From NCBI RefSeq assembly GCF_018977255.1, contig NW_024704742.1, positions 41,666,001-41,730,000 on the forward strand: a DNA stretch of 64,000 nucleotides, written 5' to 3'. Source of the DNA: Callorhinchus milii. Taxonomy: Eukaryota. A model generated the notes under the pieces. That model was not told the DNA's origin. It saw only the letters and a list, made by a program, of their open reading frames with translations, and did no database searches. Each line of letters starts with the position of its first letter. Positions within the stretch are counted from its first letter, which is position 1. Of the stretch, positions 4,135-63,469 are shown in pieces. Made by a program: the position numbers and the translations under genes.

Positions 4135-4430
4135 TGGAGTCCTGTAGCTCAGTGGTTAGAGCACTCGCCTCGCAAGCAAGGGGACCTGGGTTTGATTCCC
4201 GGCAGGGTGAAACCTTGGGCAAGTTTCCTTACTCCACACGCCTAATTAATCCCTCAAGAAAAAAACAATAATAAATTGGTCACTTCAATCCACGACTGTT
4301 TGTGGGACACTGCTGTGCACAATTGGCTGCCGCGTTTTGCCACAAATTTACAGTATGTTCTGTGAAGCGCTTTGAGACGTCTAGAAGACGTGAAAAGCGC
4401 TATATCAAATGCAAGGATTATTATTATTAT
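4135..4430 (+). mobile_element. Full-length tRNA-Ala-derived SINE, short subfamily
   Basis: GGAGTCCTGTAGCTCAGTGGTTAGAGCACTCGCCTCGCAAGCAAG head, B box GGTTTGATTCCC, tail AAGCGCTTTGAGACGTCTAGAAGACGTGAAAAGCGCT, (TTA)n. Confidence 0.93.
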
Positions 4431-5605: not shown

Positions 5606-6397
5606 CCTGATATTATGCTGCCTTCCTTCATTACATTAGGTGTGTCTGCTACATAATGAATAGTTTAAAAATAATTCAAACAAATATCATTTGGTTTTAT
5701 AAAAGACTTCTTATTATAAAAAATAAATGTCCAGGCACTGAGTTCAAGGCACTAATTTTACTCTCAGCCTCTGATGTTAATACCACCATCAGAACTGTTC
5801 AATTAAATTGCTGCCGTGTAATTTACTGGCTCCTCAACATTCTCTTACATTAGCCATCAATACCATTTTACCTGAGTTGTTCTGTTCTAGCAAGAAAGTG
5901 ATAGTTGAATGATAAATTTCTCCCAAGAAATTCTCCCAAGAAAAGCGTTCCGTCCGGGAGTCTACTCCGCGTGATGGGCACTATATAAATGCAAGTTGTT
6001 GTTAATGTTCTTGCTGCAGTCCTGATTCTACTGCAGCAAGAACATCAAACTTACCAACTCAGAGCCGATTCTCCTTTCAGTTCAGATTAACTTACATTAA
6101 TACAAACACGACGTGTAAATGAAAAACACTTTCAGGGTTTTCAACATCGGCACCATGAAGAAATACACAAAAGAAGCTGCTAAATAACAGTGCATTGTTA
6201 TACTAGTTACAGATTATGATGGATTGACACATGTTATAAACTATGAGATTTGCTCTCTTATGTTAAAAAAAACAGGTACGACTGTTCTTGAATGATATGG
6301 AATTTAATACATGCCTGGTCAAGCAATGAGCATTTGATGGTATTTCCTTTAAAAAGCCCTGTAAATAAGCACTATATTGTGTGGTGTAACCTATATT

Positions 6398-7790
6398 CTT
6401 TCTTTCCTGCCATGCCCTCTTTGAACCCCTCCAATCTGGCTTCCATGCTGCCCGCAGCACGGAAACAGCCCTGGTCAAAGTCACTAATGACATTCTGAAC
6501 ATCTGTGATCATGGCACCCTCTGCCTCCTTGTCCTCCTCGACCTCTCTGTCGTCTTCGATACCGTCGACCACTCCATCCTCATACACCGCCTCTCCGCTT
6601 TACTCAATCTTCACGGACCTGCCCTTGCCTGGTTTGATTCCTATCTCTCTCACCGTCTCCACTTTGTTGCCTCAAACGGTTTCTCCTCCAGCCCCCGCAC
6701 TGTCATGTCTGGCGTCCCCCAGGGCTCTGTCTTTGGCCCTCTCCTCTTTAATATCTACATGCTCCCCCTTGGTGACATGATCCGCAGACATGGGGTCAAC
6801 TTCCATATGTATACGGAAGTCACCCAACTCTGTCTTTCTGCCTCCACCCTCAACTCCAGGACCACTGGTGTCCTGACAGACTGTCTGTCAGACATCAAGT
6901 CCTGGATGAGGGCAAATTTCCTACAGTTGAATGTGAACAAGACTGAGACCCTCCTGATTGGCTCACGCCAGCGCCTCAGCACCTCAGGCTCTGGCAACCT
7001 CCATGGTTGCACATTACAACTCACCATAGCCAGTCAGGAACCTGGGTGTCTTGTTTGACCCTCAACTGTCTTTTCTTCCCCACATCCAAGCCATGACCCA
7101 CTCTGCCTTCCCTCACCTCCGTAACATCGCCCGACTCTGCCACTAACCACTAACTCACTCCTCAGGCCGCTGAAATTCTTGTTGATGCCTTCATCACCTC
7201 CAGGCTTGACTATGCAAACGCCCTGCTTGTCGGCCTTCCCAACTCCTCCCTCCACAGGCTGCAGATAATCCAGAACTCTGTCCTCTCCCGTACCGAACTC
7301 CATGAACCCACCTCCCCCATTCTTGCCCGACTGCATTGGCTCCCTATCCTTCAGAAGATCCAGTTCAAGATCCTGATCCTCACATACAAAGCCCTCCATG
7401 GCCTCGCCCCACCCTACCTCTGGGACCTCCTAACCCCTTACAAACCCGCCCATTCCCTCCGCTCAGCCGGCTCTGGCCTGCTCCATGTCCCCCGACCCAC
7501 CTACCCACCATTGGCGGGGGAGCTTTCAGCCACTCTGCCCCCAACCTCTGGAATTCCACCCCCCAATCACTCCACCTCGCCCCCTCCTTAGCCTCCTTCA
7601 AGTCCCGCCTCAAGACCCTCCTCTTCGACCATGCCATCAGCCACCCCCCTTTCTCTCCCCTCCCTTCTCCCCCCCCCCCCAGACCCCAGCTCGGGTCTGA
7701 AATGCTGTACACTGTCCAGCATCTTGGGACGTCCTCCCGACGTGAAAGGAACTATACAAATGTAATCTTGTTATTGTTGTTGTTGTTGTA
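6398..7790 (+). mobile_element. 5'-truncated L2 LINE (RT domain to 3' tail), frameshifted
   Basis: RT motifs STETALVKVTNDI, LDLS..FDTVDH, GVPQGSVFGPLLF, decayed YADD (YTEV); tail GGGACGTCCTCCCGACGTGAAAGG plus (TTG)n. Confidence 0.95.
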
Positions 7791-12052: not shown

Positions 12053-12380
12053 CAATAACAATAATAATAATCCTTGCATTTGATATAGCGCTTTTCATGT
12101 CGGGAGGACGTCCCAAAGCGCTTCACAGAACACACTGTAAAGTGAATTGACTGTATATTTGTGGGCGAACATGGCAGCCAATTGCGCACAGCAATGTCCC
12201 ACAAACAGTCGTAGATTGAAAATGACCAATTTATTATTGTTTTTGGTTTTGGAGGGATTATTATTAGGCTCTGTGTGGAGTAAGGAAACTTGCCCAAGGT
12301 TTCGCCCTCTGCCTGGAATTGAACTCAGGTCTCTCACTTGCAAAGCGAGTGCTCTAACCACTGAGCTACAGGACTCCACA
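12053..12380 (-). mobile_element. Full-length tRNA-Ala-derived SINE, short/young subfamily
   Basis: Shares diagnostic positions with 526-854 (CTCCC tail loop, TGC anticodon, ACAGAACACACTG); few differences by eye. Confidence 0.93.
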
Positions 12381-36149: not shown

Positions 36150-37812
36150 CATTTGCAACCCATCTCCCCAACACTTCCCATCCTCATTAGACCCTCCGCT
36201 CCATGTATTTCTGAACCGTCTTGAAGATGAAGTCTTGAAGCCCACCACCTGCTCCCTGGACCACATCCCCACCCCTCTCCTTAAATCCCAACTCCACTTC
36301 CTTGCCCCATTGCTCGCCGACATCATTAACCACTCCCTGTCATCTGGTACTGTTCCTTCCCCCCTCAAAACAGCCATTATCATCCCCACCTTGAAGAAAC
36401 CTTCCCTTGACCCATCACAGCTATCTAGCTACCGGCCCATCTCAAATCTCCCCTTCCTATCCAAGGTCCTTGAGAGAGCCGTTGCCTCCTAGCTTCGCTC
36501 TTTCCTCTCCTCCCACTCCTTTCATGAATCTTTCCTATCAGGTTTCTGTGCTGCCCACAGCACGGAAACAGCTCTGGTCAAGGTCACAAACGACATCCTG
36601 ACTATGTGTGACCAGGGCTCCCTCTGCCTCCTCGTCCTCCTCGACCTCTCCACTGCCTTTGACACCGTGGACCACTCAATCCTCCTCCACTGCCTCTCCT
36701 CCCACCTCAACCTTCAAGGTTCTGTCCTTGACTGGTTCAGGTCCTACCTTTCACACCGCCTCCACTTCGTCACAGCAAACAGCTTCTCCTCCAACCCCCG
36801 CACCGTCTCGTGTGGTGTTCCTCAGGGCTCTGTCCTCGGTCCCCTCCTCTTCACCCTCTACATGCTCCCCCTTGGTGACATCATCCACAGACATGGGGTA
36901 AATTTCCACATGTATGCGGATGACACACAACTCTATCTCTCTGCCTCCACCCTCAACTCCAGGACTACTGGCATCCTAACCTACTGTCTGCCCGACATCA
37001 AGTCCTGGACGAGGGCCATCTTTCTCCAACTCAACATCAGCAAGACCGAGGCGCTCCTGATTGGCTCGCGCTAGCGCCTCCGCACCTCGGGCGCTGGCAG
37101 CGTCAGCCTCCACGGCTGCACACTCAACCTCACTAAGCCAGTCAGGAACCTGGGTGTCTTTTTTGACCCTGAACTGTCCTTTCTCCCCCACATCCGTGGT
37201 ATGACCGGCACAGCCTACCACCACCTCCGCAACATTGCCAGATTCCGCCACTGCCTCACCCCTCAGGCTGCCGAAACCCTCACCCAATCATTCGTCACCT
37301 CAAGGCTTGATTATGGAAACTCACTCCTCATCGGCCTTCCCAACTCTTCCCTTCACAAGCTGCAGATCATCCAAAACTCTGCAGCTCGTGCACTCTCACG
37401 CACCAGGCTCCGTGACCTCATCACTCCCACCCTCGCCCGACTCCACTGGCTCCCCATCCCCCAGAGGATCGAGTTCAAGATTCTCGTCCTCACTTTCAAG
37501 GCCATCCATAGCCTTCCCTCTCCTACCTCTCTGACCTGCTGACTCCCTACCAATCTGCCCGCTCCTTCCGTTCAGTGGGCTCCGGCCTGCTCCATGTCTT
37601 TTTCAGCCTCTCTGACCCCACACTCTGGAACTCCATCCCACGGTCCCTTCGCCTCGTTTCCTCCCTTGCCTCCTTCAAGGCCGGTCTCAAGACCCTTCTC
37701 TTCAATTGTGCCTTTGTCGCCCTCCCACCTCTCTGCCTTCCCTCACCCCTACACCACCCCTCCCCCATGCTCGGGCCCTGACACCTGACTGTACAGCACT
37801 TTGGGACGTCCA
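36150..37812 (+). mobile_element. 5'-truncated L2 LINE with well-preserved RT frame
   Basis: One frame from 36235 to ~37515 with only two in-frame TAG stops (36490, 37072): KPTTCSLDHIP, YRPISNLPFLSKVLE, LDLSTAFDTVDH, GVPQGSVLGPLLF, YADD, SRLDYGNSLL. Confidence 0.97.
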
Positions 37813-43996: not shown

Positions 43997-44295
43997 TGTG
44001 GATTCCTGTAGCTCTGTGGTTAGAGACTCGCCTGGCAAGCGAGAGACCTGGGTTCGATTCCCAGCAGGGCGAAACCTTGGGCAAGTTTCCTTACTCCACA
44101 CACCCAATAATAATCCCTCAAGAAAACAAAACAATATTAAATTGGTCACTTCAATCCATGACTGTTTGTGGGACACTGCTGTGTGCAATTGGCTGCCGCC
44201 TTTCGCCCACAAAATATACAGTCAATTCATTTTACAATATATTCTGTGAAGAGCTTTGAGACGTGTAGAAGACATGAAAAGCGCTATATCAAATG
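43997..44295 (+). mobile_element. tRNA-Ala SINE, short subfamily
   Basis: TGTGGATTCCTGTAGCTCTGTGG..GGGTTCGATTCCC; standard body. Confidence 0.92.
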
Positions 44296-45309
44296 TGTTT
44301 TGTTAGCAAACAAAGCATGTGAAGGCACACCAGGACAAACATTATCTGATTTTCCTCTCAATCCACAGGTCCCAAGGCTAAAACAAAATCACCACACTAA
44401 TTATTCATGAAAGCTTTTGAGACATCTTGACATTATAAGGCAAGATCACAATGCATATTCTTTATTTTATTGTGCCCCTAAACATTTGCATTGTACAATG
44501 TAAAAAAAAGCTTTATAATAACGAGGAGCTGGTGAGCTTATTAAAACCCAGTATTCAAAGATTTAGTGTCCTGAATCCACTTCTTAAAGGTCATTACCTG
44601 AATTATGTGACTACCCTGTTAACTGTTCCACTGAATGATATCCTGGGTTGAGCAGATAATTTAAAGTGTTTCTCTAAGAGTCAACCCATGACCTCACCAG
44701 AGTAAAAATCCATCGAGAAGCAGGACATTCATATAGATTCAGCAGTATGCCTGAAGTCGCTTTTGAAGTTTTAATTAGAAATCCATTACTTGTCAGAATT
44801 TAAAAAAAAGTGTATGAATAGTAATTTAGGTTGGGGATTTAATTCCAAAGTGAAAAGATATCAGGCCTGTAAAATATCATGGTTCAAATGAATTTCATGA
44901 AAATTATTATCATTTTAAATCTAATTAATTTGATCTCAAAGTCATTTCATCACCATCATCTAAGATTGCTTTCCTCGCCCTTCTTTCCCTATCATAATAA
45001 ATGACTTGAGGAAAAATGTTTTGATGACACACTTTCACTTCTAAAAGAGTCTTAAATTAGGTCAACACTTAATCAGTTAATACTGCAACACGACAGAGAA
45101 CTATTGCAGTCCACCTGGCCCTAGGTTCTCTGTCTGACTGAGATAGGGCAAAGTGTTGGCTTGAGTCGAATTTTCATTGATCACTTCATCTCCAATTACA
45201 TGCAAAACATTTCCTGAGGTTCATAAAATTGGCCAGTTAAGTTGATTATTAGGTGGTAGATCCAGCCTGCTTTGGACTCAACCCAATCATTGTGATGCCC
45301 TCAGCGTTT

Positions 45310-51297: not shown

Positions 51298-51568
51298 GTG
51301 TATGGTATCATTGGACAAGTTCTGTTTTTCTGTTTCAGTTCATCATGTTACATAATCCTAAAACAAGGCTAAAAGCTGTCTCTAACTCTAACGGAGACTG
51401 GAGTTTATAACTTCAAGCTTACCTAAGAGTGCAGAGCCTAATGCTTTGGGTGGGAACCAGGTATTGAATCTGGGAGGCAAGAAGGAGTTAAGTTGCGGGG
51501 ACAAAGCATGGATCACTGGGAAGGTGGAGTGTTTGGTTGTAGATAATTAACAAACTGTTTTTGTTTTT

Positions 51569-51980
51569 AATAAAAACAGAAGTCACTGGGAACTCTCAGC
51601 AGGTCAGAAATCATCTATGAAAGTGAATTAATAATCCCTAAAAAAACCTAATAATAATTTGGTCACTCAATCCACGGCTGTTTGTGGGACACTGCTGTGT
51701 ACAATTGGCTGCCACGTTTCACCCACAAGTATACAGTCAATTCATTATAAAGTATATTCTATGAAGCACTTTGAGACAGGTAGAAGACGTGAAAAGCGCT
51801 ATATCAAATGCAAGGATTATTATTATATGTCGTCAGAATCTTTCTGACAAAAGATCATCGACCTGAAACGTTGACTCACTTTTCTCTCTCCATAGATGCT
51901 GCCTGACCTGCTGAGTGTTCCCAGCGACTTCTGTTTTTATTTCAGATTTCCAGCATCTGCAGTATTTTGCCTTTTGTTTA
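51569..51980. mobile_element. Inverted pair of Penelope-like terminal repeats with a SINE in the left arm
   Basis: 51569-51626 is the reverse complement of ~51885-51941; centre GTCAGAA-TCT-TTCTGAC; right arm matches the reverse of 62840-62975. Confidence 0.78.
51628..51827 (+). mobile_element. 5'-truncated tRNA-Ala SINE
   Basis: AATAATCCCT..GGTCACTCAATCCACGGCTGTTTGTGGGACAC..AAATGCAAGGATTATTA. Confidence 0.9.
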
Positions 51981-52019
51981 TCGTCGTTGTTTTTAATTTG
52001 TCCAATATTATCTTTGTGT

Positions 52020-61985: not shown

Positions 61986-62839
61986 TGCCGCTCTATATGC
62001 TTGGATTTTAATGGCAGTGGAATAGCGCTGTGTGCTGTCTTAAGCAGCTGCGTGGTCAATCTTAGCTGTGCTACTATGGGAATTGGCAAGCAAAGGGAAG
62101 ATGGAAGGAGGGGAGAATACGAGCGAGGAATGCCTGTTTGTGCCTCCTGCAGGCTGATTTCAGTGCAGCATAAGTAGAGTTGCTGGAGCTTGTTTTACCA
62201 AGATATGGGACTTGTCGTGGGGACCCAATGAAGGAGAAAGAGAAAGTTAAAGAGACAATGTTTTGTGTTGCAGGCTTTGAAATTAATATATTGATTTTGG
62301 AAAAAGAAACACTTTATCACCTTGGTTTCACTGACAAAGTGGGTGGGTGGTAGTTGCAGAGACTGAAAGATGAGAAGTACAGATGTCTCAATTGTTGTAA
62401 CTGATGGTTTGACAATTGTGGAAACATGAAGATTATTTGTACAGTTCACAGAACACATGTGGTAAGAAAATCATCATTTAAATCGCTAAACCTTGGCTCA
62501 TGATGTGGGTGTTCTGACAGAACAGAAAATAGTCTTCTCTTTTTACATTAAAGGGGCACTATCGGTCAATGGGGAGAATCTGTGAGGCAGAGAGATTCTA
62601 TTCTGGAAATCTGCTAACGTGCTGCAATTTTGACCAGCACGGCAAGTTTGCTTTACAACACACACTAAAGACTTGAAATTCTACCTGGTCCCAGCTTGTA
62701 AGAAGAGATTGTTAAATTTTAAGATTGCCCATCAGTGTAGAAAATTCTCAAATTCTGCCTTAATATGGAAGCCCATTTTCAATTTTTAAAAAGAGATGAA
62801 AAAGGCTCCCAAATTAAGACTAAATTTCAGAAATAAACG

Positions 62840-63060
62840 AAAGACAAAATACTGCAGATGCTGGGAACCTGAAATAAAACAGAAGTCGCTTCGAACACGC
62901 AGCAGATCAGGCAGCATTTATGGAGAGAGGAAAATGAGTTAACGTTTCAGGTCGATGACCTTTCGTCAGAACTGGGGGATGTTGGAAGGGAGCAGATTAT
63001 GAGGACAAGCAGAGAAGGGGGTGGAGAAAGAAAGACAAACAAAAAACTAAGGTGGAGATT
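62840..63060 (-). mobile_element. Penelope-like element terminal repeat
   Basis: AAAATACTGCAGATGCTGG.AACCTGAAATAAAACAGAAG..CAGGCAGCATTTATGGAGAGAG..GTTAACGTTTCAGGTCGATGACCTTTCGTCAGAACTG, recognised as a shark Penelope-type repeat; contains a hammerhead. Confidence 0.78.
62937..62973 (-). ncRNA. Minimal type-I hammerhead ribozyme
   Basis: AGUU-CUGACGA-A-AGGUC(AUC)GACCU-GAAAC-GUU-AACU: stem I AGUU/AACU, CUGANGA core, 5-bp stem II, GAAA, loopless palindromic stem III (ACGU), GUU triplet. Confidence 0.8.
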
Positions 63061-63469
63061 GTTTGTTTGAGATTGCAGAACTTTGTAAATCAAGGGGAAA
63101 TTTAACCTCTTTCGATTACTGATTTCTGTAAGCTCTTTAAGCAGTCGTGAAGAAGCTGAAAGTTGTAAAAATATTGTGGTGCTTCTATTTGCACATGCAA
63201 GTGTCCTGTTAGTGAGCTCACCTGGGGATCGCATGTGCTGCACTCACCACATTGAACACTGGGCCACTCAATGAGGTATGATGGTGGGTGACCCACGTGC
63301 CGTATTATGTCACTGCTCGGCTCAAGAAGCGAACTTGGAGGTAAAGATTGCAAGGGTCATCCTCCTGAAGTGTTCACTCATACCAGTATCTGGAGGTTGC
63401 GCTAGACACCTAACTTTGCTTGTACACTATCCTTCAGGACCACGTTGCCAAGAGATGAAGGGAACGCTA

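Follow-up and report, generated by a model that had tools for sequence, protein, structure and literature searches.

The window, i.e. the whole 64 kb stretch of DNA analysed here, contains a complete minimal type I hammerhead motif (min-HHR) on the minus strand at 62973-62937, with a loopless stem III. This motif is very probably encoded by a family of Penelope-like elements (PLE), sits in the 3' end piece (pseudo-LTR, or pLTR) of that family, and persists as a relic in an old 5'-truncated insertion. Direct observation covers the motif, the repeat nature of its surroundings, the repeat ends and the inverted, tailed arrangement of insertions, as well as the orthologous insertion carried by a second organism. 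The minimal hammerhead is intact and real; elements of its kind are already known, and it is one copy among very many.

The hammerhead motif

The motif was examined base by base. From the 5' side of the minus strand, it begins with the 5' strand of stem I (62970-62973), followed by core positions C3 to A9 (CUGACGA, 62963-62969, with C at N7). An extra A at 62962 lies between positions 9 and 10.1, a feature described in PMC4209133. Stem II (62949-62961) has 5 bp, with arms at 62961-62957 and 62953-62949, a 3-nt loop at 62954-62956 and predicted pair probabilities of 0.98-1.0; its closing pair is A10.1-U11.1. Then come GAAAC (62948-62944), which holds the GAAA core, and the overlapping palindrome ACGU (62945-62942), which includes the C-G pair 15.2-16.2 and leaves no loop 3. 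The triplet GUU (62943-62941) ends in U17; the cut is predicted directly after it, between 62941 and 62940, and the 3' strand of stem I (62937-62940) closes the motif. All four pairs of stem I and all five of stem II are Watson-Crick. The reading given by the first-pass annotation (core, 4-bp stem I, 5-bp stem II, extra A, ACGU) is thus exact for every base, and its cut position agrees with the indexed coordinates. It did not mention the A-U pair at 10.1-11.1, where the consensus is G-C (above 80%, not invariant), nor that C7 enables an alternative hairpin between the core and CGUUA.

The published RNAmotif descriptor for min-HHRs (PMC4209133, Fig S7: stem I of 3-7, cuganga plus 0 or 1 base, stem II of 3-7, loop of 3-10, gaaannuh) matches 62973-62937 and no other site on either strand of the 64 kb. 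A stricter descriptor of our own found one match in 300 shuffles, and a simpler pattern with one mismatch allowed found 2 sites in the window vs 0.05 expected. Pattern scans of viral contigs, metagenome contigs and prokaryote genomes returned 0 loci each. The Rfam search proposed as a check by the first-pass annotation gave no hammerhead match, either at the gathering score over the 64 kb or at E<=10 over 4 kb and 111 nt, a miss which we infer to reflect the missing stem III. This miss and the absence of a link to a PLE protein would suit a chance match within an unrelated repeat. Such a coincidence is extremely improbable: the published descriptor gave a single match in 500 dinucleotide-shuffled windows, the extra base and the palindrome are both present although the descriptor requires neither, and the family carries the PLE-type insertion structures described below.

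The motif resembles the min-HHRs found in PLE pLTRs by Cervera and De la Pena (2014, PMC4209133), which are of type I, with CUGANGA plus one extra base, a short stem I and GAAA-CG-UH without loop 3, and which are mostly solo and dispersed, at times in opposite-strand pairs. The A-U pair at 10.1-11.1 sets it apart from most of them (3 of the 56 published motifs have it, counted by eye in their Fig S3); coelacanth family 2 of the same paper shares both this pair and the extra A. U17 occurs in 24 of the 56 (Fig S3, by eye). Since U17 and A10.1-U11.1 are also present in a second copy of the repeat (copy B, below), and since no motif position is among the 40 of 84 variant positions listed for the family, both look like family traits. 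The 40 species illustrated in PMC4209133 include no cartilaginous fish.

Three CpG sites lie in the motif (62943-62944, 62953-62954 and 62964-62965), two of them on core positions, and copy B has lost G8 at one of these sites. Hammerhead cores with C7 may decay fast through methylation.

The host repeat

The repeat that carries the motif (copy A, minus strand, 62833-63058) was delimited by contig depth and by pieces ending at 63056-63058. It is a solo, 5'-truncated, pLTR-like end piece of a very abundant repeat, about 225 bp long, with boundaries from about 62833-62840 to about 63058. An optional 3' tail of about 40 nt (62833-62872) is present in copies A and B. No target-site duplication above 5 exact nt was found at copy A. 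A pile of loose ends before 62876 stems from a 1-base indel in copy A and was not taken to prove a second element end.

Contigs from four runs (three organisms; 24 runs listed) were matched to 62740-63340 at 80% likeness, and 4773, 1393, 4284 and 6731 contigs fitted. The summed depth of the repeat is about 10^4 times that of the unique flank in runs X1 and X10, a figure which is not a copy number. In organism B, one contig of single-copy depth covers 62922-63259; it shows 50 differences and 16 gaps over 338 nt, i.e. an orthologous insertion at about 15% divergence; the insertion of copy A therefore appears to predate the split from organism B. Majority differences from the family number 0 in the 37 positions of the motif vs 11 in the 181 of the rest of the element, among the 40 of 84 variant positions listed. 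This could hint at constraint, but the difference falls short of significance (p = 0.22).

A peptide read from the copy B repeat matched 2 of 7 candidates, one protein of Scyliorhinus torazame and one of Heterodontus francisci; in both, the peptide is apparently an exonised piece of the repeat. These matches make a cartilaginous fish very likely as the host. The predicted Heterodontus RNF14 isoform X2 opens with the peptide, in sense orientation, over residues 1-38; the repeat may thus provide host transcripts with a first or early exon. In run X19 (organism E), another upstream family sequence adjoins the ribozyme end from 62975 upward (279 records, agreement 0.51) and retains the four bases preceding the stem.

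Insertion structures of the Penelope-like type

A second locus of the window (locus B, 51.6-52.0 kb) carries further sequence of the family. Copy B (plus strand, 51842-51981) belongs to the same family, with 89% identity over 140 nt, and its core is broken (G8 to A, and a mismatch in stem II). Adjoining its 5' end, head-to-head, lies an inverted, 5'-truncated, tail-less arm on the minus strand (51569-51838, made of 51569-51631 and 51830-51838); a SINE-like repeat at 51629-51826 splits this arm. Both arms begin at the equivalent of 62971. The direct arm ends at the equivalent of 62833 and the inverted arm at that of 62873, so at this one locus a tail of about 40 nt is present on one side only. 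The whole is flanked by an 11-nt direct repeat on the plus strand (51561-51571 and 51987-51997), a candidate target-site duplication; a repeat of this kind arose in 20 of 20000 shuffles and in 121 of about 20000 T-rich pairs. Target-site duplication is a variable trait in PLEs. At the scale of the family, 12 of the 15 joints listed (38 in all) are opposite-strand joins.

Inverted and tailed structures such as that of locus B are reported for insertions of endonuclease-positive PLEs (PMC8557442, PMC3846280), with tails of 30-40 bp (PMC8557442). The two element ends lie 68 and about 108 nt beyond the cut site; for comparison, reverse transcription of the anole PLE starts 85-92 nt beyond its own (PMC11167929). 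The likeness to this element, Poseidon PAc of Anolis carolinensis (Frangieh et al. 2024, PMC11167929), extends to the position of the hammerhead near the 3' end of insertions, which stop about 70-110 nt downstream of it and may or may not carry a tail, and to the use of uncut RNA as the source of copies. The two differ in that the PAc ORF is known and starts in stem II, whereas no ORF was tied to the shark family here, and in that the 5' ends of the shark family cluster at stem I.

Protein domains were searched with Pfam in the 137 ORFs of the window of at least 75 aa. None carries GIY-YIG. Two carry RVT_1 (6390-7055 and 36493-37071), far from the hammerhead repeat; their translations resemble pieces of CR1/L2-type LINEs, which we take to be unrelated to it. 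The peptide search from copy B returned no PLE protein among its matches. A solo end piece would not carry an RT or GIY-YIG ORF. A minimal type I hammerhead within a Penelope-like repeat, as the first-pass annotation had proposed, is well supported by the descriptor match, the repeat depth and the insertion structures; neither the window nor the peptide search yielded a link to a PLE protein gene.

Non-LTR retrozymes are also short non-coding repeats with type I hammerheads, derived from PLE pLTRs (PMC7229834; bioRxiv 10.64898/2026.07.22.740005), and have been reported in one chondrichthyan (same sources). They are head-to-tail tandem arrays, often with canonical ribozymes, unlike copy A, which is solo and has no tandem partner. 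A retrozyme is recognised by two or more units in head-to-tail order, every one of them carrying its own complete hammerhead, and the 64 kb hold one complete motif.

Cleavage at the solo locus

The first-pass annotation proposed that pairing with a second copy could allow a minus-strand transcript to be cut. This is possible in principle. Such ribozymes are reviewed as cleaving as dimers (PMC6765202), and GUU is among the cleavable triplets, GUC and GUA being the fast natural ones (PMC3138052). At this locus, cutting is unlikely, because the window holds no intact partner, the predicted fold hides the core, and published min-HHRs are inactive alone and weak as dimers. No intact same-strand partner copy was found in the window, which on the minus strand reaches only about 1 kb upstream. 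In the predicted monomer fold, C7 lets UGACG pair with CGUUA, four of the five pairs having probabilities of 0.96-0.99, and the open hammerhead-like fold has a probability of 0.002. The active-like dimer is predicted at -9.7 kcal/mol vs -18.2 for two hairpin monomers, i.e. 8.5 kcal/mol less stable, and a six-pair helix using A14-U17, which should be inactive, at -12.1 kcal/mol is also more stable than the active-like dimer; these energies ignore tertiary contacts.

Published activities are low as well. A single min-HHR gave no cleavage in vitro and dimers gave low cleavage (PMC4209133), and 8 of 9 Xenopus dimer elements tested did not cleave (bioRxiv 2026.07.22.740005). The ribozyme of the anole element needs protein and is dispensable for insertion in vitro; RNA-seq ends are absent from its cut site, and uncut RNA is the main insertion substrate (all from PMC11167929). 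The motif at this solo locus is most likely a passive relic.

We considered whether copy A could instead be a working ribozyme, possibly used by the host, that cuts a minus-strand transcript. Its core has stayed intact despite the divergence of about 15% in the insertion common to organism B, and no majority difference from the family falls in the motif among the variant positions listed. The conservation does not reach significance, the predicted folding and the missing partner are unfavourable, no host exon was identified, and the Xenopus dimers are mostly inactive. We regard a working ribozyme as very improbable here.

As a pLTR relic, the motif would have been deposited by an old 5'-truncated insertion. 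By analogy with known PLEs, two copies in the parent's tandem or protein-bound RNA would pair via ACGU to form stem III, and cleavage after U17 would be slow or protein-assisted. Once solo, with no partner in the window, the motif would be held by C7 in an inactive hairpin and remain passive.

Many family copies start at the 5' edge of stem I

The 5' ends of family copies accumulate at 62971-62973, the first bases of stem I, in all four runs, and the flanks behind these positions are unrelated in every run (agreement 0.34-0.40). Loose ends form 879 groups; the 24 listed include 11 at 62968-62975 and no group at the cut site 62941/62940. The records of run X1 are split 69/94/88 over 62971-62973. 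Because the 5' ends lie at or upstream of the first base of the ribozyme, family copies are made from uncut RNA. In each of the four runs, the consensus behind 62973 opens with C on the plus strand, a G in the RNA, and turns to noise after that letter; the chance of a C there is 0.018, 0.105, 0.027 and 0.004 per run, and the runs may share loci. This letter is the plurality letter, its share not being visible. The papers searched, mainly open ones, contained no description of the shark family or of a start at stem I; four short family motifs were not found in the full-text literature.

The segment 62969-62975 (minus strand) holds a putative initiator-like motif (background 0.013 per position), which also reads as a pyrimidine tract plus AG, i.e. 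acceptor-like. The initiator (Inr) consensus is YYANWYY, and 62975-62969 fits it with A+1 at 62973. Of the 56 published motifs, 9 have a related YCAKTY motif, defined post hoc, directly before the core (counted by eye; at the composition of the window, about 1.8 would be expected). Transcription may start at the first base of the ribozyme, and we note this as a lead.

It is possible, if doubtful, that this first base is a Pol II transcription start, which would add to the pLTR explanation rather than replace it. The family would then include a short (about 140-nt), capped, self-promoting, non-autonomous unit, many insertions would be full-length copies, and cleavage would take off a capped 33-nt leader, as an off-switch or a decapping step rather than as a way to make templates. 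The clustering of loose ends at stem I with unrelated flanks, their absence from the cut site among the groups listed, and the initiator-like motif here and in published motifs all point this way. So does the G behind 62973: full-length insertions of capped L1 RNA are marked by an extra G (PMC11702581). Penelope itself has an internal TATA-less promoter (PMC2377424). Against this, the G is known as a plurality letter, and a short fold-back arm could supply it as its opening base, two joints falling on 62974; behind 62972, C comes first in only 2 of the 4 runs, and both arms of locus B begin at the equivalent of 62971 without the G. In Drosophila virilis Penelope, moreover, a 75-nt intron extends up to the 5' end of helix I, and transcription starts 46 nt before this intron (PMC2377424, PMC4209133). 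The full version of the proposal, with an initiator overlapping stem I and many copies being full-length cDNAs of a capped RNA of about 140 nt, copied uncut and bearing a cap-derived G, is rather unlikely.

The D. virilis Penelope pLTR suggests another origin of the boundary. Like the shark motif, it has AG at the 5' edge of helix I (PMC2377424; PMC4209133), and it has an internal promoter, of which the shark counterpart is putative (PMC2377424); the two differ by a 2-nt insert in helix III of D. virilis and by its transcription start upstream of the intron. The shark boundary could likewise be a splice acceptor, with AG at 62973-62972 and the exon running from 62971, and copies would then derive from RNAs in which varied upstream exons are joined to it. 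The pyrimidine tract plus CAG before the boundary, the intron end in D. virilis and the start of both locus B arms are consistent with splicing, and the 69/94/88 split fits donor exons that end in AG more closely than it fits random flank (0.81/0.14/0.05). Donor exon ends, however, predict T rather than C on the plus strand behind 62973 (probability of a C plurality 0.0006-0.10, at assumed donor frequencies), and the loose-end consensus contains no common first exon. We consider a splice site improbable.

The boundary could finally be structural: reverse transcription would halt or snap back where the new cDNA re-pairs stem I, giving truncations and fold-backs. The predicted hairpin covers exactly 62973-62937, a joint of run X10 (62935/62974) lies near a stem I snap-back, many joints are inverted, and PLEs with palindromic 5' junctions are described (PMC3846280). 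Most of the inverted joints listed begin elsewhere (62876-62927), and a single shared base followed by unrelated flank is not directly explained. We hold this origin, too, as possible if doubtful.

Other repeats in the window

Several smaller features were noted. An imperfect inverted repeat at 62745-62832 (34-nt arms, 76% complementary, 20-nt spacer) abuts the 3' end of the element; it has weak, sub-threshold matches to microRNA models, and 62740-62781 reaches 20-30 times single-copy depth in run X1. It is possibly a small low-copy MITE-like repeat. Another low-copy repeat at 63202-63306, with a depth up to about 200 vs 6.8 in run X1, contains a small inverted repeat (63246-63277). At 63352-63381, 388 nt from copy A, 30 nt are 80% like the hammerhead region in inverted orientation, the top score of 419 bins; this is either a decayed inverted partner or chance. 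The second-best look-alike, at 44337-44366, resembles the 3' side of the hammerhead. The similarity extends in neither case, and the two were left out of the count of family copies. Five tRNA-like matches (783-845, 1446-1517, 4138-4210, 12309-12371 and 44005-44068) probably represent the heads of a SINE family derived from tRNA; the 3' part of this family occurs dispersed over the window and is what splits locus B.

Significance for the family

Hammerheads of this class have been known in Penelope-like ends since 2014, and a single motif therefore matters little. The question touched is what weak ribozymes do for their element. The shark family, being very large, offers many natural junctions, and its copies begin at the 5' edge of the ribozyme and not at its cut site. 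If that edge were a capped start, the role of the ribozyme would have to be re-read as removal or control of a leader: the family would include a self-promoting, SINE-like Pol II derivative of Penelope, in which cleavage acts as a brake and not as a template-making step. The initiator-like motif upstream of other published min-HHRs hints that this may hold more widely.
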